Source of the DNA: Clostridia bacterium
GTDB lineage: Bacteria; Bacillota; Clostridia; Christensenellales; CAG-138
Assembly: GCA_017616435.1 (NCBI GenBank)
Contig: JAFZYC010000078.1
Location: 29,716-93,715 of the forward strand
DNA: 64,000 bases
Direction: 5' to 3'
Program-made: the position numbers and the translations under genes
The notes under the pieces: generated by a model
Told to the model about the DNA's origin: nothing
The model's input: only the letters and a program-made list of their open reading frames with translations
Databases searched by the model: none
Part shown: positions 1,438 through 39,092 of the stretch, in pieces
Numbering within the stretch: the stretch's first letter is position 1
How the letters are laid out: each line of letters begins with the position of its first letter

Positions 1438-2841
1438 ATGTGTCAGTATGATTACGATATAGCGGTATTGGGCGGCGGCCCCGGCGGTTACGTTGCTGCG
1501 ATCAGAGCCGCGCAGTACGGTAAAAAGGTCGCGCTCATCGAAGCGCGCGAACTCGGCGGCACATGCCTCAACCGCGGCTGCATCCCCACGAAAGCGCTCC
1601 TGCACTGCGCTGAGGTTTACGAGCAGTCTGTGAACGCAGCTTCATTCGGCGTGAACAGCTCGGAGATCGGCTTTGATTTCGGCAAGATGGCCGAGTTCAA
1701 GCAGATTACGGTAGATAAGCTCGTTTCCGGAATTGGAAGCCTTGAAAAAGCTCATGGAGTCAAGGTGATAAACGGATTCGGCCGATTGACCGACAACCAT
1801 AATATGACCGTTACCGATAAGGAAGGTACGGAGATCAATGTATCGTACGACCGGCTGATACTCGCGACCGGTTCGTCTCCCTCGCGTCCTCCCATCGAAG
1901 GCATCGACGGAAAGAACGTCGTGACCTCCGACGATATCCTCTCCATGCAGGAGCTTCCCGAAAGCTTCGTCATCATCGGCGGCGGCGTTATCGGTATCGA
2001 GTTCGCAACGCTGTTTGCAACTTTAGGCAGGCCTGTCACCGTTATTGAAATGATGCCTTCGATACTGCCTGGCGTGGATGCGGACGTTGTTCGTACCTGC
2101 CTTCGCGTGCTCAAAAAGAAAAAGGTCTCGATCGTCAACAACGCCAAGGTTACGAAGATTGAAGGCGGCGATACCGTTACCGTGAGCTATGAGCTGAATG
2201 GCGCGGTCAAGACCGCAGAAGGCGCATGCTGCGTCGTCAGCGTCGGTCGCAGGGCCGAAACGCGCGGCATTGGCCTTGAGGAGATCGGCGTCGAGTTCAA
2301 CAGGAACTTTATCGCGATCGACGATCATTGTCGTACCAATATCGATAACATATATGCGATCGGCGATATAACCGGCAAGATCCAGCTTGCGCATGTAGCC
2401 TCCGCACAGGGCCTTGTAGCGGCTGCAAACGCCGCAGGACACGATGAGACGATGAACTACGATGTAGTTCCCTCCTGCATATACACAAGCCCAGAGATCG
2501 CGTTTGTGGGCGTTTCAGAGGATAAGGCAAAAGCGCAGGGCATCGAGTACAAGATCGGGACTTTCAACGTCGCCGGAAACGGCCGCGCGATGGTAATGGG
2601 CGAGAACCTCGGTATCGCAAAGCTGATATCCGATATGGACGGCAAGCTTATCGGCGCGCAGCTCATGTGCCCCAGGGCGACAGACATGATCGCGGAGCTC
2701 GCCGCGGTCATGAAGCTCGGCGGGACAGTAAAGGACGTGGCGGATACCATCCACCCGCATCCCACTGTGAGCGAGGTCGTTATGGAGGCCGCGCATGATT
2801 GGGAAGGCCTTTGCTGCCACGGTATGCCGAAGAAGAAATAA
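1438..2841 (+). CDS. lpdA: Dihydrolipoyl dehydrogenase
   Basis: GGGPGG FAD motif, GGTCLNRGCIPTKA redox disulfide, GGGVIG NAD motif, C-terminal HPHPTVSE. Start moved to ATG 1438 behind AAGGAGGA. Confidence 0.95.
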   Translation: MCQYDYDIAVLGGGPGGYVAAIRAAQYGKKVALIEARELGGTCLNRGCIPTKALLHCAEVYEQSVNAASFGVNSSEIGFDFGKMAEFKQITVDKLVSGIGSLEKAHGVKVINGFGRLTDNHNMTVTDKEGTEINVSYDRLILATGSSPSRPPIEGIDGKNVVTSDDILSMQELPESFVIIGGGVIGIEFATLFATLGRPVTVIEMMPSILPGVDADVVRTCLRVLKKKKVSIVNNAKVTKIEGGDTVTVSYELNGAVKTAEGACCVVSVGRRAETRGIGLEEIGVEFNRNFIAIDDHCRTNIDNIYAIGDITGKIQLAHVASAQGLVAAANAAGHDETMNYDVVPSCIYTSPEIAFVGVSEDKAKAQGIEYKIGTFNVAGNGRAMVMGENLGIAKLISDMDGKLIGAQLMCPRATDMIAELAAVMKLGGTVKDVADTIHPHPTVSEVVMEAAHDWEGLCCHGMPKKK

Positions 2842-2852
2842 AAGAGCAATTG

Positions 2853-2884
2853 AAAAGTCCGCCGACTGTCCGGCGGGCTTTTTT
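2853..2884. terminator. Bidirectional intrinsic terminator
   Basis: AAAAGTCCGCCG-actgtc-CGGCGGGCTTTTTT between the convergent lpdA and UDG genes. Confidence 0.8.
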
Positions 2885-2891
2885 CATTCTG

Positions 2892-3479
2892 TTATAATTC
2901 TATCTCTTCACCGCGGTTGATCCTGTCGACAAGCTTCTTTGCCTGACACAGATCGAATACGAAATCGTTGGTGAACTCCTCACGCCGCAGGAGTGCAGCC
3001 GGGTGATATGTCGGAATAATGTAGAATATCCCGGCTTTCTTAACTCTGCCGCGCTGACGGGAGATCTGGATATCCCGGTCATATACGTATCGCGCGGCGA
3101 TCCTTCCAAGGCAGACGATAACTTTCGGCCTTACGAGCGCTATCTGTGCGCGAAGATAGGGGAGACACGCTTCCGCCTCATCGGGGAAGGGGTCGCGGTT
3201 CTGCGGCGGGCGGCATTTGACGATATTGCAGATATAGATCTTTTCCCTTTCAAGACCGGCTTCCTCCAGCAGATAGTTGAAAAGTCTTCCGGCCGCTCCG
3301 ACGAAGGGAACGCCCTGTTCGTCCTCCTCGCGGCCGGGGCCTTCGCCTATGAACATTATCTCGGCATGGGGATCTCCGTCCGCGATCACGATATTGGTGC
3401 GCTTTTCACAAAGCCTGCATCTGGTGCAGTCTTTTAGCTCTTCATATAACGTGTTCCAGTCGAACCTCAGCGTAGCCAT
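2892..3479 (-). CDS. Uracil-DNA glycosylase, family 4 (Fe-S)
   Basis: CxxCxLC, GEGPG, NIVKCRPP-NRDP, YHPAALLR. Confidence 0.92.
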   Translation of the reverse strand: MATLRFDWNTLYEELKDCTRCRLCEKRTNIVIADGDPHAEIMFIGEGPGREEDEQGVPFVGAAGRLFNYLLEEAGLEREKIYICNIVKCRPPQNRDPFPDEAEACLPYLRAQIALVRPKVIVCLGRIAARYVYDRDIQISRQRGRVKKAGIFYIIPTYHPAALLRREEFTNDFVFDLCQAKKLVDRINRGEEIEL

Positions 3480-31515: not shown

Positions 31516-34500
31516 TTAGAAGAACTTCAACTGATCAGTATCCGGCAGACCGGCAAAGCATCCGAGAGCGTCCAGCTTATCCATGATGCTCGTATTCGCC
31601 TTTGTGCGGATCGCGAAATCCTCTTTAGAGGAGTATTCCCCGTCCTTGGCGGCGTTCTCGATCATTACAGCCACGCTTTCACCAAGACCCGCAACCGCCG
31701 TAAACGGAGGACGGATCTTGCCGTCTTCGATCGTGAAAGTATTGGCCTTGGATCTGTAAAGATCGATCGGGAGAAGCTCATAACCGCGCATGTTCATCTC
31801 GGCGACGACCTCCAATATGGTGATCGCGTCCTTCTCCTTCTGATCGGGCTTGTCCTTGGCTTTGAGCAGTTTAAGATTGTTCATTACATTATCCAGTCCG
31901 CCCTGACACAGCTCGATATCGAACGTATCGGCTCTTACCGTATAATAAACGGCGTAGAACTCGAGCGGATAATGGACCTTGTAATACGCTATGCGGAAGC
32001 TCATCATAACGTAAGCGGCCGCATGCGCGCGCGGGAACATGTACTTGATCTTTTTACAACTGTCAATGAACCATTCCGGAACGCAAATGGAGCGCATCAT
32101 CTCCTCCATCTCGGGTTTCAGTCCCCTGCCCTTTCGGACGTTTTCCATCGTCTTGAAGGAAAGCGACGGCTCACCGCCCTTGGAGATGAGGTAGTTCATT
32201 ATGTCGTCGCGTGTACAGATTACTTCCATCAGAGTAGCGGTATGGTTCTGTACAAGCAGCTGCGCGTTGTTCGTCCAAACGTCCGTTCCGTGGGAAAGGC
32301 CCGCGATTCGTACGAGCTCCTCCATGGTGGTCGGACGGGTCTCCATGAGCATGCCTCTTACAAAACCCGTGCCGAACTCCGGGATCGCGAAGGAGCCTAC
32401 GTCCGCTCCGAGCGGCTTAAGGCTGACGCCCAGGGCTTCATCCGTGCGGTAAATTGACATTGTTTCGGGATCGTCGAGCGGTATCGAGCGAGGATCGAGG
32501 CCGGTAAGATCCTTAAGCATCCTAAGCGCGGTCGGATCGTCGTGACCGAGTATACCGAGCTTTACGAGTTTATCGTCGAGCGCATGGAAATCGAAATGAG
32601 TCGTAACGCTCCCGCTGTCGTTCTTATCCGCGGGATGCTGAACGGGACAGAAATCGAAGATCTCATAATCCTCAGGAACTATAACTATCCCGCCGGGATG
32701 CTGGCCGGAGGTCTTTTTTACGCCCAAACAGCCCTGAACGAGCCTATTGATCTCGGCTTCGGATTTCTTGAGATCGTTATCCTCGCAGTAATGCTTTACA
32801 TATCCGTAAACAGTCTTATCCTGCACCGCAGAGATCGTTCCTGCGCGGAAAGCATGGCCTGCACCGAACATCTCTTCGGTGAATCTGTGAGCTATAGGCT
32901 GGTATTCACCGGAGAAGTTGAGGTCGATATCGGGCGTTTTGTCGCCCTTGAAGCCCAGGAAGACTTCGAAGGGGATATCATAGCCCTCCTTGCGCAGCTT
33001 GGTACCGCAGTTCGGGCAGAGTTTGTCGGGCAGGTCGATTCCGCAGCGGGAATGCTCCTCAAGCTTGAACTCGCTATATTTGCAGTTGGGGCAAAGATAA
33101 TGCGGAGGAAGCGCGTTTACCTCAGTTATTCCGAGCATCGTCGCGACGAAAGAAGAACCGACGGAGCCCCTTGAACCGACGAGATATCCGTCACTGAGGG
33201 ACTTTGAAACGAGCTTCTGCGCGACCATGTAGAGCGAAGAATAGCCGTTGCCGATTATCGAATGCAGTTCCTTATCAAGTCTTGCCTGAACTATCGGCGG
33301 CAGCGGATCGCCGTATCGCCTGTGGGCTTCGCCCATTGTCATGCTTTCGAGTATCTCTTTGGCGTTCGGAAGCTCCGGGGAATATGTGAACTTTTCATCG
33401 AGGAAGGGGTGCAGCTGCTCGCCGCACAATTCGGCGATCTTATTCGGATTCGTAACGACTACTTCCTTCGCCCTCTCCTCGCCCAAATACGAGAACTCCT
33501 TCAGCATCTCGTCTGTAGTCCTGAAATAGAGCGGCGTCATTCGCATAGAATCCTTGTATCCCTGCGAATGGAGCAGGATCGAGCGGAAGATCGCGTCATC
33601 CGGCTCAAGGAAATGCACGTCGCATGTCGCCACAGTGAGCTTACCGAGCTCGTCCCCCAATTCGACGATGCGCCTGTTGTAATCTCGGAGGTCCTCGGCG
33701 GTGAGCTTCGACCCTTCGGCCTCAACCATGAACATATTGTTGTCAAGAGGCTGTATCTCAAGATAATCATACCAATCGGCGATCGAACGAAGCTCGTCTT
33801 GAGAGGCACCGCGAACGACGGCTCTGTAAAGCTCGCCGGCTTCGCAGGCAGAGCCCAGAAGCAGGCCCTCTCGCATCATGTTGAGAAGGCTCTTGGGTAT
33901 GCAGGGACGCTTGAAATAATACTGGAGATGCGAATACGAAACGAGCTTGTAGAGATTTTTGAGTCCCGCAAGGCTAGCAGCAAGTATGATGATGTGGTAA
34001 CGCTGGAGTTTTTTGTAATCGGGGAAACGGCGATCCCAATACGGGATCTCAGTCACTCCGCGGTCCTTAAGCTCATTAATAAGTCCGGTAAGGAGCCGGC
34101 ATATCTCGTCGGCGTTTTCTTGAGCCGGCTTTTCGGGGATAGATTCATATCTGCCTTCAATAGGAGCGCAGCCGCTCTCCATACTGTAATCCTTGATGTC
34201 GAGATGCGCGTTCAGCTCGAGCTTATTGATATCGACAAACTCATAAGGAACTTCGCCCTCGTTATGCAGGACCGAAGAAAGACCGTCGAGCGTTGACTCA
34301 TTATATGCGGCGAATACAGTGCCTTCTGCGAACTCAAGGAGCTTTTTGACCGCTTCAGCGGGATCCGGAGCAGCCTTAACATCTTCTTCAACGATGCCGC
34401 AGTTTTTGACAGCCCATTTGGGGACTGAAATGCCTGGATCAGCCAAGGTATCGAATCTGCCGAGCACATTGCCCGCTGAATTGAACTTGACTGCGGAGAT

Positions 34501-35805
34501 CGCGAATATCGAAGTGCCGGAAGCGGAGGACTGAACCGTAGTCGCCACTGCCGTATACGGCCTTTCATCGATCTCATGAATAGAGGAATCGTTGACAAGA
34601 TATCCTTCGCAGCCGAAAATGACCTTGATATTATTGGCTTTTGCCGCTTTCATCGCCTCGGGAAGGGAATGAACGACGCCGTGATCGGTGATCGCGATGG
34701 CCTTATGTCCCCACTCCGCTGCGGTTGAAATGACTTCCGAGACCTTTGTGAGCGCGTCCATAGTCGACGCCTGAGTATGGAGATGCAGCTCGACTCGCTT
34801 TTCGCCGTCGGGAGCATTGTCCTTTCTCTTTTCGGCTGCGCAGCGGTTTATGTCGTTCGCAAGGAGTACGTAATCCCTTGAAAACGTATCGTATTTGTAG
34901 TTGCCGCGAACGACGATCAAGTCGCCGGCGTCCATAATGTTCTTGATCTTATCCTCTATGGATCTTGCTTTATCGCTTTCGGGGAAGAACTTGACGGAAA
35001 CAGTGTTCGTATTGTCGGAGAAATCGAGTTTGAAAATCGTCCTTGATTTGTCGCGGGTTTCCGTTATCTCATAACTGATGACAGCGCCGATCGCGACGGC
35101 ATTGCCCGTCGTTTCGCCGAACTCGCTCATGGGAGTGATATCGCGCTTTACGATCTCTTTGCCGATAACGATGTCGGCAGGATCCATCGCCTTTTTATTA
35201 GGGGCTTTTTTCTTCGCGGAAGACGGCGCAGCCTGACCTGCCGAAACCGTCTGGATCCTATGCCTTGCGACGGAGCCGCCAATGCAGCGGCCTACGTCAA
35301 CGGCTTTGAGCTCAGATATGCTTTCGTCGGGCACGAGATCCACCGCAAAATGCCAATTCCAGAGCTCAGCGGCTTTTATCTTGAGTTCGGTCACCCTCTC
35401 GGAATGGATCGCCTTTATCACATCGGGCGACGAGCGGATAGAAAATACGGTATTCCCCTCCACTGCTTTTGAGACGGTGATCCGTGAGTTTGCGAGCACG
35501 GGATAGATCTCCGGGGAAAGCTGTCCCCATGCGTCGCGGAAGAACGATACTATATCCTCCTCCGGAAGCTCGGAAAAACTTGCGATTGCTTTTGAAAAAT
35601 CGAAATCGATATTGACGAGAGAGGTCATCAGCTTGTCGCATATCAGCCTTTTCACGCTCTCTATCTCGAACGGCAGAAGCATCCTCAAAGCGGAGACGCT
35701 GATATTGAACGTCCCCGTTGCTGAAGATCTCGCCGCACGTGTGATCGCGAATGCGGAAGCTTTTTGAAGCTCGTTACCGAGTTTTATGTAGTCCTCTCCG
35801 CTCAT
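31516..35805 (-). CDS. polC: DNA polymerase III, PolC type (exonuclease domain degenerate)
   Basis: OB fold, PHP ELHLHT/AITDHG, zinc finger, PDIDLNF, GQHPGG, GLSHGTDVW, MFPRAHAAAY; 1429 aa. Confidence 0.97.
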   Translation of the reverse strand: MSGEDYIKLGNELQKASAFAITRAARSSATGTFNISVSALRMLLPFEIESVKRLICDKLMTSLVNIDFDFSKAIASFSELPEEDIVSFFRDAWGQLSPEIYPVLANSRITVSKAVEGNTVFSIRSSPDVIKAIHSERVTELKIKAAELWNWHFAVDLVPDESISELKAVDVGRCIGGSVARHRIQTVSAGQAAPSSAKKKAPNKKAMDPADIVIGKEIVKRDITPMSEFGETTGNAVAIGAVISYEITETRDKSRTIFKLDFSDNTNTVSVKFFPESDKARSIEDKIKNIMDAGDLIVVRGNYKYDTFSRDYVLLANDINRCAAEKRKDNAPDGEKRVELHLHTQASTMDALTKVSEVISTAAEWGHKAIAITDHGVVHSLPEAMKAAKANNIKVIFGCEGYLVNDSSIHEIDERPYTAVATTVQSSASGTSIFAISAVKFNSAGNVLGRFDTLADPGISVPKWAVKNCGIVEEDVKAAPDPAEAVKKLLEFAEGTVFAAYNESTLDGLSSVLHNEGEVPYEFVDINKLELNAHLDIKDYSMESGCAPIEGRYESIPEKPAQENADEICRLLTGLINELKDRGVTEIPYWDRRFPDYKKLQRYHIIILAASLAGLKNLYKLVSYSHLQYYFKRPCIPKSLLNMMREGLLLGSACEAGELYRAVVRGASQDELRSIADWYDYLEIQPLDNNMFMVEAEGSKLTAEDLRDYNRRIVELGDELGKLTVATCDVHFLEPDDAIFRSILLHSQGYKDSMRMTPLYFRTTDEMLKEFSYLGEERAKEVVVTNPNKIAELCGEQLHPFLDEKFTYSPELPNAKEILESMTMGEAHRRYGDPLPPIVQARLDKELHSIIGNGYSSLYMVAQKLVSKSLSDGYLVGSRGSVGSSFVATMLGITEVNALPPHYLCPNCKYSEFKLEEHSRCGIDLPDKLCPNCGTKLRKEGYDIPFEVFLGFKGDKTPDIDLNFSGEYQPIAHRFTEEMFGAGHAFRAGTISAVQDKTVYGYVKHYCEDNDLKKSEAEINRLVQGCLGVKKTSGQHPGGIVIVPEDYEIFDFCPVQHPADKNDSGSVTTHFDFHALDDKLVKLGILGHDDPTALRMLKDLTGLDPRSIPLDDPETMSIYRTDEALGVSLKPLGADVGSFAIPEFGTGFVRGMLMETRPTTMEELVRIAGLSHGTDVWTNNAQLLVQNHTATLMEVICTRDDIMNYLISKGGEPSLSFKTMENVRKGRGLKPEMEEMMRSICVPEWFIDSCKKIKYMFPRAHAAAYVMMSFRIAYYKVHYPLEFYAVYYTVRADTFDIELCQGGLDNVMNNLKLLKAKDKPDQKEKDAITILEVVAEMNMRGYELLPIDLYRSKANTFTIEDGKIRPPFTAVAGLGESVAVMIENAAKDGEYSSKEDFAIRTKANTSIMDKLDALGCFAGLPDTDQLKFF

Positions 35806-36845
35806 TCAAGCTCCTTTAAAACGTCTTCGATGAACCTGTCGACAACAAACGGAAGCTTGTCTGTATAGCAAAGCTCGCCCTTTTTGAACACGACAGCATT
35901 GACGCTGCCGAAAGCGATGCCTATATCGGCCTCTCTCGCTTCGCCAGGGCCGTTTACAGCGCATCCCATCACGGCTACGCGTAAATGCTTATCCGTATCG
36001 GGAAGCGCTTCCTCGACCTTTTTAACGATCTTGGCGAGATCCACTCTGGTTCTGCCGCATGTCGGGCAGCTTATGACCTCGACGCCTTCGGAACGAAGCC
36101 CGACTGCCTTCAATATGCGTTTTGCGGCGTAGACCTCTCTGACAGGATCTCCGGTCAGTGAAACTCTTATGGTATCGCCGATCCCGTCAAGCAGAAGCGA
36201 ACCGATACCTATCGATGATTTTACAAGCGCTGATTCGCTCATCCCCGCTTCGGTAACTCCGAGATGCAGAGGATAAGGGGTCTTCTCCCTTGCCAGACGG
36301 TTTGCTTCAACGGTTTTCGATACTGTCGAGGCTTTAAGCGAGATCACGATATCCTCGAATCCGCATTTTTCGAGTATCGACACATGCGCAAGAGCGCTCT
36401 CAAGCATACCCTCGGCCGTAACGCCGTATTTTTTGAGGATGTCCTTTTCGAGCGATCCGCCGTTGACGCCTATCCTTATGGGAACGCCGTGATCCCTTGC
36501 GCAGGCAACGAGCTCTCGCACCTTTGATTCGGAGCCTATGTTTCCGGGATTGATCCTGACCTTGTCTGTTCCGTTTTCTATAGCGGCAATGGCAAGTCTG
36601 TGATCAAAATGGATATCCGCGACGAGCGGGATATGCGTGCGCTTTCGTATCTCGGGGATAGCCGCGGCGCAGGCTTCGTCATAGACGGAAAAACGGACGA
36701 TCTCACAGCCTGCGTTTTCAAGCGCGAGTATCTGTTCGGAGGTCGCAATAGCGTCGCGCGTGTCGGTGTTCGTCATAGACTGGATCGTGGCCGGCGCGCC
36801 GCCGCCTATCTCCGTATCCCTGATTTTAAAGCGTTTTGTTTTCAT
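35802..36845 (-). CDS. ispG: (E)-4-hydroxy-3-methylbut-2-enyl-diphosphate synthase
   Basis: IQSMTNT, ADIHFD, RINPGNIG, CPTCGR, GCAVNGPGE. Confidence 0.97.
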   Translation of the reverse strand: MKTKRFKIRDTEIGGGAPATIQSMTNTDTRDAIATSEQILALENAGCEIVRFSVYDEACAAAIPEIRKRTHIPLVADIHFDHRLAIAAIENGTDKVRINPGNIGSESKVRELVACARDHGVPIRIGVNGGSLEKDILKKYGVTAEGMLESALAHVSILEKCGFEDIVISLKASTVSKTVEANRLAREKTPYPLHLGVTEAGMSESALVKSSIGIGSLLLDGIGDTIRVSLTGDPVREVYAAKRILKAVGLRSEGVEVISCPTCGRTRVDLAKIVKKVEEALPDTDKHLRVAVMGCAVNGPGEAREADIGIAFGSVNAVVFKKGELCYTDKLPFVVDRFIEDVLKELE

Positions 36846-36852
36846 AGTTACC

Positions 36853-37944
36853 TCAACTGAACATACCGTTGAACAAGCCGCGAACGTCGCCTATCGTTAC
36901 ATAGATCATCAGCAAAATGAGCAGTCCGAAGCCGATCATGCTCAAAGTGTTCTGTATACTGCGGGGCACGGGCTTGCCGAATATGAGCTCTATCGTATCG
37001 AACAGCAAATGTCCGCCGTCCATGGGCAGTATCGGCAGAAGGTTCATTATGCCGAGGCTCATTGAAATAAGGATCATGATGAGCAGCAGATAATATCCGC
37101 CCATCGAAGCCATCTTCATCGTGATCGCGATAGTTGCGACCGGACCGGAGAAATCGCCTTGGTTGAAGCCGTTTCGGAAGCCGTTTGCAATCGCTTCAAA
37201 GGTCGTCTTTACGATCTTTTCCATAAAGCCGAAGCCGCCTTTTAACGATGCGCCAAGGCCGCAGCGCTCACAATATTCCGTGATCCCCATAGTGATACCG
37301 AGGAAATTGGAGTTCTCGGCTTCGTTATAGATATCGGATACGAAGACGTCGATTGTATCTTCTCCGCGGAGCACGGTAAGAGTAATCCCTTCGTGCGGAG
37401 CTTCCTTGATGGCTTTTGAGATCGCCGCCGTCTTTTCGTCGAAGGAAGAACCGGCGTTTTCTATATCGGCGCCGTTCACGAAGAGGAGGATATCCTCGGG
37501 CATAACTCCCGATCTCTGTGCCGGGCCGCCTTCAACGACGGAGTTTACAGTTATCGCATAATCGCCGTTGCCGTAGCAGACCGTTTCCCTGTTTCCGAAG
37601 CAAAGGAGCATAAGCACGGATAATACGTATGCAAGCACAAAGTTCATGAAAGGGCCCGCGAATATGACGATAAGGCGCTTCCACGCCTTTTGCGAGTTAA
37701 ACGAGACCGCGTCTATCGGATCGTCCTCTTCCCCGTAGAAACGGCAGGCGCCGCCAAGCGGTATCGCCCTTAATGCATAATTGATGTCTTTTTTCTTGAA
37801 TTGGAAAATAGCCGGTCCGAAGCCAATCGAAAAATCGAGTATCTTGAATCCCAAAAGCCTTCCGGCCGTATAGTGACCGAGCTCATGTATGAAGATCATG
37901 AGCGCAAGTACAAGCAATGCTATCAAAAAGTAGAGTATACTCAT
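36853..37944 (-). CDS. rseP: Intramembrane zinc metalloprotease RseP (M50, PDZ)
   Basis: HELGH, FAGPFMN, one PDZ domain, NLLP..MDGG. Confidence 0.94.
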   Translation of the reverse strand: MSILYFLIALLVLALMIFIHELGHYTAGRLLGFKILDFSIGFGPAIFQFKKKDINYALRAIPLGGACRFYGEEDDPIDAVSFNSQKAWKRLIVIFAGPFMNFVLAYVLSVLMLLCFGNRETVCYGNGDYAITVNSVVEGGPAQRSGVMPEDILLFVNGADIENAGSSFDEKTAAISKAIKEAPHEGITLTVLRGEDTIDVFVSDIYNEAENSNFLGITMGITEYCERCGLGASLKGGFGFMEKIVKTTFEAIANGFRNGFNQGDFSGPVATIAITMKMASMGGYYLLLIMILISMSLGIMNLLPILPMDGGHLLFDTIELIFGKPVPRSIQNTLSMIGFGLLILLMIYVTIGDVRGLFNGMFS

Positions 37945-37946
37945 TA

Positions 37947-39092
37947 TTACCTCTTAACTGCAAACTCTTTTGCGAGCCTGCGCGCTTCTGAATCGGCATA
38001 CAACAGCGCGTCGATATCGTTGATCGCGATATCTTCTATCATGCCCATAACATGCTCTACGCAGTCTGCGATATCGGTAAAACGCAGCTCTCCCTTTATG
38101 AACCTGTCGACAGCGACCTCGTTCCCGGAATTGTACGCGATGGGAAGACTGCCGCCCTTTTCAAGCGCCCTGTACGCCATTGGGATCGCAGGGAATCTGT
38201 CGGTATCGGGTTCAAAGAACGAAAGACCGTTAAAGGAAGCGAGATCGAGCGGCGCAGCGGGAGACGGGATCCTGTCGGGATATGTCAGAGCGTACTGAAT
38301 CGCGAGCCTCATATCGGGAACGCCTAGCTGAGCAATTACGGAATTGTCGCAGAACTCTACCATTGAGTGCACTACGGACTGCGGATGGATGAGTACGGAG
38401 ATCGACGAAGCATCCATATCGAAAAGGAATGCCGCTTCCATTATCTCAAGTCCCTTATTGAACATAGTAGCCGAATCGATGGTGATTTTGCGCCCCATGT
38501 TCCAGTTGGGATGCTTCATCGCCATTTCCGGAGTGACGTCCTTGAGCCTTTCAAGCGGAGTTTCACGGAACGCTCCGCCGGATGCGGTAAGGATAATCCT
38601 TTTTACCTCTTCCTTCCTGCCCGCTGTAAGGCATTGGAATATGGCGCTCTGCTCGCTGTCAACGGGCAGTATTTTTCCCCCGCCGCAATTTAGTGCTTCG
38701 GCAACGAGACGCCCGGCGCAGACGACGCTCTCCTTATTCGCAAGCGCGACCGTTTTGCCCGAGCGCAGCGCCTTTATGAGCGGGAACGTTCCGTTAAAGC
38801 CGCTGACTCCGTTGACGACTATATCTATGCCGTCCATTTGGGCGATATCCCACACAGCTGTTCCCGATATTATCTCCTTATCGGGGAAGGCTTCACGGAC
38901 TGCCGCAGCGGCTCTGTTGTCGAAAACGCCCACGATCTTCGGATCGTATTCGAGGATCTGCTTAATTCCGGCATCCGCATTTGAGCCGAATATGAGCGCA
39001 TAAATACCGAACTCATTCCTGTGCATACTGCAAACGGAGAGAGTCTGACTGCCTATAGATCCGGTCGAACCGAAAACCGCTACGTTCTTCAT
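37947..39092 (-). CDS. dxr: 1-deoxy-D-xylulose-5-phosphate reductoisomerase
   Basis: GSTGSIG, LANKES, PVDSE, KHPNWNMG, NKGLE, HPQSVVHS. Confidence 0.97.
   Translation of the reverse strand: MKNVAVFGSTGSIGSQTLSVCSMHRNEFGIYALIFGSNADAGIKQILEYDPKIVGVFDNRAAAAVREAFPDKEIISGTAVWDIAQMDGIDIVVNGVSGFNGTFPLIKALRSGKTVALANKESVVCAGRLVAEALNCGGGKILPVDSEQSAIFQCLTAGRKEEVKRIILTASGGAFRETPLERLKDVTPEMAMKHPNWNMGRKITIDSATMFNKGLEIMEAAFLFDMDASSISVLIHPQSVVHSMVEFCDNSVIAQLGVPDMRLAIQYALTYPDRIPSPAAPLDLASFNGLSFFEPDTDRFPAIPMAYRALEKGGSLPIAYNSGNEVAVDRFIKGELRFTDIADCVEHVMGMIEDIAINDIDALLYADSEARRLAKEFAVKR

Follow-up and report, generated by a model that had tools for sequence, protein, structure and literature searches.

PolC is the textbook replicase with a built-in DnaQ proofreader, and the enzymes of Bacillus subtilis, Geobacillus kaustophilus (3F2B) and Enterococcus faecium (9QPC/9QRN) are its canonical examples. 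In the 2013 survey by Timinskas et al., 6% of PolCs were without the exonuclease (Exo) insertion; all of these came from Clostridia or Negativicutes, apart from one extra copy in Thermotogae, and the PolC was paired with DnaE1 (PMC3919608). Vestigial 3'-5' exonuclease domains have been described in Taq Pol I, in actinobacterial PolA2/APEX and in bacterial PolB2, and among the alpha subunits of Pol III the PHP domain, not the DnaQ proofreader, is the part that becomes inactivated (PMC12926913). According to the same survey, of 2026, Clostridia usually possess three “active” proofreaders. Proofreading by a PHP domain is known for the DnaE1 of Mycobacterium tuberculosis (PMC5636811), and the C669Y substitution in Clostridium thermocellum PolC, which affects the PHP Cys ligand, gives a ~30-fold mutator (bioRxiv 10.1101/2021.07.30.454558). 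Here we analyzed a polC gene (31516..35805, minus strand) within a window of 64,000 nucleotides, by which we mean the whole stretch taken from contig JAFZYC010000078.1 of a Clostridia bacterium (assembly GCA_017616435.1). As an earlier note on this DNA had claimed, the DEDDh exonuclease site of its product is dead while the PHP metal site is intact.

The window PolC, a PolC-type DNA polymerase III alpha subunit of 1429 amino acids (a usual length for a complete PolC), belongs to the same family as the canonical enzymes and shares their architecture and chromosomal slot. Against the NCBIfam PolC equivalog NF001688 its score was 1495 bits (cut-off 873), TIGR01405 gave 1360 bits (cut-off 1043), and Pfam recognized PHP, RNase_T (partial), DNA_pol3_alpha, finger and HHH_6 domains. 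The order of domains is that of a PolC, namely an N-terminal domain, an OB fold, a PHP domain with a DnaQ-like insert, the Pol3 core and a helix-hairpin-helix (HhH) domain. Identity to the solved canonical structures was 43–44%, with TM-scores of 0.77–0.92; the AlphaFold 2 (AF2) model of residues 230–1429 (1200 residues) matched 3f2b with a TMt of 0.92 and 9qpc with a TM of 0.78. Identity to an exonuclease-intact relative was 56%. Unlike canonical PolC, the window protein has a fully substituted DEDDh site and a genus-specific conserved loop before the ExoIII motif.

The DnaQ-like domain, which is inserted in the PHP domain and was characterized by hhalign, AF2, Foldseek and the ratio of nonsynonymous to synonymous substitution rates (dN/dS), occupies residues ~406–598 (34012..34590; all polC features lie on the minus strand). 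The earlier note had placed the loss at 34080–34560, which corresponds to residues ~416–575, the core of the domain. We aligned 80 PolCs, comprising the window protein and 79 PolC open reading frames (ORFs) from fetched loci, 10 of which duplicate another locus. The five catalytic columns hold D, E, D, H and D in 36–37 of the 37 exonuclease-intact PolCs, in which the motifs read Y/FVVFDIETTG (ExoI), VAHNASFD (ExoII) and xxHHRAxDDA (ExoIII). The window PolC has 0/5 of these residues. In the ExoI remnant, YTAVATTVQS (residues 417–426; 34528..34557), A421 replaces Asp and T423 replaces Glu, as seen both in the alignment and by hhalign. In the ExoII remnant, AAYNESTLD (residues 499–507; 34285..34311), the alignment shows L506 in place of Asp, with N502 kept. 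In the ExoIII remnant, IPEKPAQENADE (residues 556–567; 34105..34140), K559 and N564 stand in the columns of His and Asp according to the alignment and hhalign. The three substituted motif strings quoted in the earlier note were all found as quoted. The neighboring D507, one residue past the ExoII column, is not conserved within the genus, where this position is mostly Asn. Among the 11 genus-clade sequences of the alignment, 9, including the window protein, lack any carboxylate on the β1 strand, which excludes a canonical two-metal site. Because of this strand, together with A421, T423, L506, K559 and N564, we term the domain a pseudo-exonuclease and not a functional DEDDh member. Pfam RNase_T (PF00929) matched residues 430–510 only, at 30 bits. 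The exonuclease-dead E. faecium PolC engineered for cryo-electron microscopy carries D431A/E433A, that is, changes in ExoI residues only (PMC12592400). HMMER aligned the engineered “AVATT” of that protein to the natural “AVATT” of the window PolC, whose ExoI (A..T) mimics the engineered site.

The loss of the catalytic residues has not been accompanied by loss of the fold. The dead-clade profile aligned to the profile of intact exonucleases by hhalign with 98.8% probability over 168 columns. When residues 396–606 were modeled alone by AF2, the mean predicted local distance difference test score (pLDDT) was 83.9 and the predicted TM-score 0.81. Foldseek matched this model best to the PolC exonuclease domain in the E. 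faecium structures 9qpc/9qrn (E 3e-9, TMq 0.65), and further matches included DnaQ, ERI, epsilon, Orn and a long list of other DEDDh nucleases. By these model comparisons, the dead domain retains the DnaQ fold.

The substitution rates lead to the same picture of a domain that is kept. In the exonuclease region, dN/dS was 0.10–0.34 for pairs of dead PolCs (0.66 in one low-count pair) and 0.03–0.17 for intact pairs. In the PolC core, the values were 0.015–0.07 and 0.01–0.10, respectively. The ratio dN(exo)/dN(core) was 4.5–12 for dead pairs and mostly 1.6–2.5 for intact pairs, with one low-count intact pair at 5.5. The pseudo-exonuclease is thus clearly under relaxed yet real purifying selection and is not decaying. 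The dead clade has lost 17 columns whose conservation among intact PolCs is 90% or higher, and 15 of them, including every motif position, are in the exonuclease domain. None of the 17 falls within the PHP, fingers or HhH domains, and conservation was altered at no PHP column within the dead clade. These comparisons indicate that the constraint on the remainder of PolC is unchanged in the dead clade. A compensatory change in the PHP domain or the polymerase was considered and rejected, as the only systematic changes outside the exonuclease domain are E311D, in the N-terminal/OB region, and T1053C, in the palm. The first of these lies at window positions ~34873–34875 and the second at ~32647–32649, where the dead clade has FDFCPVQHPA and intact PolCs have YDFTPIQYPA.

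The earlier note had treated the loss as a feature of one lineage's gene and had not taken in the Exo-less clostridial PolCs of 2013 (PMC3919608); the trait spans many genera. When the exonuclease region was used as query, 28 full-length PolCs were retrieved, with 43–68% identity in that region and none with the motifs. The scan of species-representative genomes returned 50 loci. Ten of these, from rumen and gut metagenome-assembled genomes (MAGs) labeled “Clostridia bacterium” RGIG/RUG/RUI, have the window-type domain, two (L016 and L017) are intermediate, and 17, from MAGs labeled Christensenellaceae, Christensenella sp., CAG:138 or similar, carry another kind of dead domain, in which 12 residues are deleted; the exonuclease is intact in the rest. 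Every species of the window's genus has the same dead domain. In a tree built from PolC columns 600–1429 only, with the exonuclease columns omitted, 30 dead PolCs formed a single clade with 100% support in the Shimodaira–Hasegawa approximate likelihood ratio test. Next to this clade the tree placed the dead pair G015 and G023 together with eight PolCs of the same GTDB family whose exonuclease is intact. The dead PolC of G027 was placed elsewhere on the tree, and there have therefore been at least two exonuclease losses. The ExoII Asp is replaced by L, M, I or V in all 30 members of the dead clade, and the ExoI Glu is often Thr in both subclades. The monophyly of the 30 and the shared ExoII change are consistent with a single ancestral inactivation, probably one event in the common ancestor of a large group of uncultured Clostridia from rumen and gut; this group would comprise the window's genus, its sister MAGs and the MAGs labeled Christensenellaceae/CAG-138. 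In a wider survey of the 130 genomes of the GTDB family with at least 90% completeness, ~60 (19 genera) had a frame of PolC size with a strong RNase_T match in it and ~70 (~21 genera) gave no strong PolC-embedded match. In the same family, the PolC of G021 (L075), which is otherwise exonuclease-intact, has Tyr for the first ExoI Asp (HVVFYIETTG); this could be either the onset of an independent inactivation or an error.

In contrast to the exonuclease site, the PHP metal site is complete. The N-terminal part of the domain (residues 336–405; 34591..34800), identified by Pfam PHP and the alignment, provides the ligands H341, H343, D350, H375 and E400, and the C-terminal part (residues ~599–790; 33436..34011), identified in the same way, provides H604, C654, D729 and H731. 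All nine ligands listed in the earlier note were thus located, and the five of the N-terminal part are invariant in a further alignment (A1). C654 corresponds to C. thermocellum C669. The nonad HHDHEHCDH is intact in 80/80 PolCs, whether the exonuclease is dead or intact. The genome also encodes a DnaE1 of 1159 amino acids, and the DnaE1 nonad HHDHEH(C/H)DH is intact there and in 30/30 relatives checked. According to the earlier note, proofreading had moved to the PHP site. The PHP domain remains the most plausible mechanism, but the word “moved” does not hold, because the PHP nonad is equally intact in relatives with a live exonuclease. On these sequences, the loss of one out of three redundant candidates for proofreading is more parsimonious than the transfer of an activity.

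These observations can be combined into a possible mechanism. In a clostridial system of PolC and DnaE1, the three candidate proofreaders are normally the PolC DnaQ domain, the PolC PHP domain and the DnaE1 PHP domain. In the present system, of these three, the two trinuclear metal sites of the PHP domains are left, both of them intact; 3'-5' editing at the fork would be performed by the PolC PHP domain in cis, by the DnaE1 PHP domain or by the two together, and mismatch repair through MutS would serve as back-up. Because the dead domain is located between strands of the PHP fold, it has probably been kept as a structural module, which in the window's genus would also present a new conserved surface. 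We infer that actual proofreading is carried out by the PHP sites of PolC and DnaE1. The reading that we prefer, and consider probable though far from certain, is that an otherwise normal PolC carries a pseudo-exonuclease throughout the clade, and that PHP editing by PolC, DnaE1 or both is the likeliest mechanism.

Several points weigh against this reading. To our knowledge, exonuclease activity has never been shown for any PolC PHP domain, and the mutator phenotype of C. thermocellum C669Y, which is the sole indirect support in vivo, could reflect structural destabilization and not lost PHP catalysis. An intact PHP site is not specific to exonuclease-dead lineages; comparing lineages therefore reveals no sign of compensation. 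The MAG consists of 102 contigs with a completeness of 91%, and a small dnaQ-like gene could sit in the missing 9%. Lineages of the same order that have no PolC polymerase have kept the DEDDh exonuclease as a separate protein, which suggests that the DnaE1 PHP domain alone is perhaps not always sufficient under selection. Finally, a dense cluster of conserved polar residues at 502–554 of the window PolC is not accounted for by a purely structural role.

This cluster includes a genus-specific, strongly conserved segment, EFVDINKLELNAHLDIKDYSMESGCAPIEGRYESI (residues 522–556; 34138..34242), which was defined from 35 unique sequences and the AF2 model and stands in for the helix and loop that precede the ExoIII His; its consensus is …EYVDINKLELNxHLDIKDYSMESGCAPISGRYE…. 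The invariant or near-invariant polar residues in the genus are N502, E/D503, E516, E522, D525, N527, K528, N532, H534, D536, K538, D539, Y540, S541, E543, C546, R552 and E554. Within this run lies the loop HLDIKDYSMESGCAPISGRYE, at the position of the canonical helix and loop ahead of the ExoIII His. Its pLDDT was 51–67 when the domain was modeled alone and 63–79 in the 1200-residue context, a small rise that does not decide whether the loop packs on the rest of PolC. The loop is absent from the Christensenellaceae-type subclade, where 12 residues are deleted and MLMQYLRRDLKxEER is conserved. A bolder reading is that polC is being taken apart along functional seams in this order: some lineages would retain just the N-terminal domain, the OB fold and the DEDDh exonuclease, as a proofreader acting in trans for DnaE1, and the dead clade would retain the polymerase and have made the exonuclease a non-catalytic module. 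In the window's genus, the polar loop HLDIKDYSMESGCAPISGRYE (N502–E554) of this module might then be a new functional site, serving as a surface for docking or as a sensor of metal or ligand, and would link PolC to PHP editing or to DnaE1. If this were true, these bacteria would have the first natural PolC replicases to depend on PHP proofreading alone. We regard this as a speculative and rather unlikely possibility. An overlapping antisense gene as the source of the loop conservation was rejected because the antisense frames range from 88 to 808 amino acids among relatives and none is conserved.

We weighed four other explanations of the data. The one that comes closest to the preferred reading is that DnaE1 is the principal replicase with its own PHP proofreading, and that PolC has been reduced to an auxiliary role in which its proofreader became dispensable, as part of a lineage-wide sub-functionalization of polC. 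This possibility was raised for systems with PolC and DnaE1 by Timinskas et al. (PMC3919608), and the intact nonad of the DnaE1 in this genome and its 30 relatives is in line with it. So is the finding that 5 of 41 relatives in the same order have no PolC polymerase and only DnaE1 and a frame of 511–538 amino acids with a full RNase_T domain, a mini-PolC with an intact exonuclease. In G031, for example, this gene (L117, G031:C1:124500-130500, ORF 1737-3272) encodes 511 amino acids, in which an intact DEDDh exonuclease is joined to an N-terminal domain and an OB fold; it occupies the polC slot between ispG and nusA, and the PHP and polymerase domains are absent. The mini-PolC lineages and the exonuclease-dead clade together indicate that the polymerase and the exonuclease of PolC are separately dispensable in sister lineages. 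However, the PolC core of the dead clade is under very strong purifying selection (dN/dS 0.015–0.07), constraint has been lost at no polymerase or PHP columns, and every member is full-length and syntenic. An enzyme that is essential and in heavy use would show this pattern, and we therefore consider a merely auxiliary PolC unlikely, if still worth keeping in mind. Less likely again is that nothing proofreads at the PolC site and that a higher error rate is either corrected by mismatch repair or accepted, making the lineage a mild constitutive mutator, as the earlier note had also proposed. All DEDDh residues are gone, no trans-acting DnaQ was found in the MAG, PHP activity is unproven for PolC, and the genomes are small (1.4–2.4 Mb). 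On the other hand, the trait has persisted through the radiation of ~20 genera, the genome encodes MutS, its guanine-plus-cytosine (G+C) content of ~52% is normal and shows no AT drift, and the nine PHP ligands, invariant in both polymerases, would be hard to explain if they were functionless. DnaE1 root-to-tip distances were alike, at 0.34–0.59 in dead genera and 0.40–0.59 in intact genera, so that no excess of branch length marks the dead lineages. With the age of this multi-genus trait and the low dN/dS of the PolC core, these features make the constitutive mutator of the earlier note improbable, and to judge from the genomes a mutator lineage is unlikely.

The earlier note had further suggested that an epsilon-like protein proofreads in trans. 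Such an exonuclease might be a stand-alone RNase_T/DnaQ-like protein, or a DUF2779 (Cas4-like plus RNase-H-like) protein encoded on contig C68 of the same genome. Stand-alone RNase_T ORFs of ~190–365 amino acids do occur in some members of the genus. On C68, a 449-residue Cas4-like and DUF2779 protein with DEDD-like motifs (L006:23-1372) lies directly upstream of a 386-residue protein (L006:1474-2634) that resembles a PolC fragment with palm and Zn-finger parts. However, PF00929 matched PolC alone in the genome, and a hidden Markov model (HMM) built from 37 intact PolC exonuclease domains and run with HMMER filters off over 14,544 six-frame ORFs detected nothing RNase_T-like besides PolC. No second polC and no fused or stand-alone dnaQ were found in the MAG with PF00929, PF07733, the PolC protein or the custom HMM, which returned only PolC and DnaE1; the earlier note had allowed for a second intact polC, and none is present in the 91%-complete assembly. 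Stand-alone RNase_T genes are patchy in the genus (5/14 genomes, and 3/9 among those at least 90% complete) and equally so in exonuclease-intact genera. Of the 14 genomes from the genus, 6 contain DUF2779 and 3 the mini PolC-like gene, an accessory or mobile pattern, and one copy lies beside a restriction-type nuclease. A trans-acting exonuclease is accordingly given very little credence. The explanation with the least to commend it, which we hold to be next to impossible, is that the loss is an artefact of mis-assembly, of a chimeric MAG contig or of a decaying pseudogene. The MAG contigs are of low depth (~3–9x), and the codon of Gly1084 in the polymerase active site does resemble a low-depth variant. 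But window positions 33950–34650 showed zero differences among contigs of four public metagenome runs, in agreement with the statement of the earlier note that no base-call error is involved. The frame is open over all 1429 codons, more than 40 orthologues from independent studies have the same dead motifs, and the domain is under purifying selection. These findings rule out the artefact.

Like the Exo-less PolCs (PMC3919608), the window PolC comes from Clostridia, has a DnaE1 partner with a perfect PHP metal site and carries no DnaQ-type proofreader on PolC. Unlike them, it has an insert of ~190 residues that is present, folded and under selection, and that was inactivated and not deleted. 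Pfam RNase_T went undetected in most of the dead relatives of the window PolC. Because Pfam rarely detects the remnant, such PolCs may have been counted as “lacking Exo” in that survey. The complete nine-residue trinuclear metal site in both PolC and DnaE1 resembles that of M. tuberculosis DnaE1 (PMC5636811) and of the Thermus DnaE PHP exonuclease, and, as in DnaE1 enzymes that proofread through PHP, the alpha subunit would itself do the proofreading and need no DEDD exonuclease for it. The M. tuberculosis and Thermus enzymes, however, are of the DnaE type and have no DnaQ insert, whereas the window PolC has a dead DnaQ domain inside the PHP fold. The DnaQ-like fold has outlived its catalytic carboxylates as it did in the polymerases with vestigial exonucleases, among which the vestigial domain of PolA2 gained an interaction motif; yet Taq Pol I, PolA2 and PolB2 are family A or B repair or accessory polymerases, and the window PolC is a C-family replicase. 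The mini-PolC (~510 amino acids) of related Christensenellales-like lineages in the same order sits at the same locus and likewise uncouples the two activities of PolC, with the opposite outcome, since an intact exonuclease has been kept there while polymerase and PHP domains have been lost. A retained, folded, selected and catalytically dead DnaQ insert in a replicative PolC appears not to have been described in PMC3919608, in PMC12926913 or in other literature found by full-text searching.

The clade offers a natural experiment to find out if PolC's PHP domain truly acts as a proofreading nuclease, and it is also informative on how the clostridial replisome of PolC and DnaE1 divides polymerization and editing. 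Expectations about mutation rates in abundant rumen and gut Clostridia are concerned as well. Annotation is affected in that the exonuclease-dead proteins carry the ordinary label “PolC-type DNA polymerase III”.

The C68 protein that resembles a PolC fragment is one of two weak PF07733 matches in the genome, the other being a 305-residue frame on contig C13 (L005:1348-2265). Both contain PolC-like palm-N and Zn-finger parts and lack the catalytic aspartates, and one has a fingers-like C-terminus. The C13 fragment is located near a REase-ARP nuclease. As general proofreaders the two fragments were rejected, since they have no catalytic aspartates, are patchy in distribution and lie beside nucleases. 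Together with DUF2779 they may be components of a mobile or defence module.

In the polymerase active site, the alignment identified the catalytic aspartates D959 and D961 in the motif PDIDLNF (32923..32931). The codon of the third catalytic residue (32554..32556) reads GGT, which gives Gly1084, as established from the alignment and from contigs of other runs. Of the 78 PolCs with sequence at these columns, only the window PolC has the triad DDG; the other 77 have DDD. Run X1 shows C at position 32555, and near-identical contigs of X3 and X4 show T, which restores GAT (Asp). Contigs of X1, the probable source run, end at 32561–32564, only 6–9 bp from this position. Gly1084 is therefore probably a low-depth variant or an error, and not a fixed loss of polymerase activity.

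The polC gene is the sole PolC match in its MAG of 1.94 Mb. It directly follows dxr, rseP and ispG/gcpE (35802..39092, minus strand), and this is the usual neighborhood of polC, with conserved synteny. Upstream of polC, in the direction of transcription, dxr (37947–39092) was identified by Pfam DXP_reductoisom, rseP (36853–37944) by Peptidase_M50 and PDZ, and ispG/gcpE (35802–36845) by GcpE, all on the minus strand. The window gene is an orthologous, housekeeping replicative PolC.

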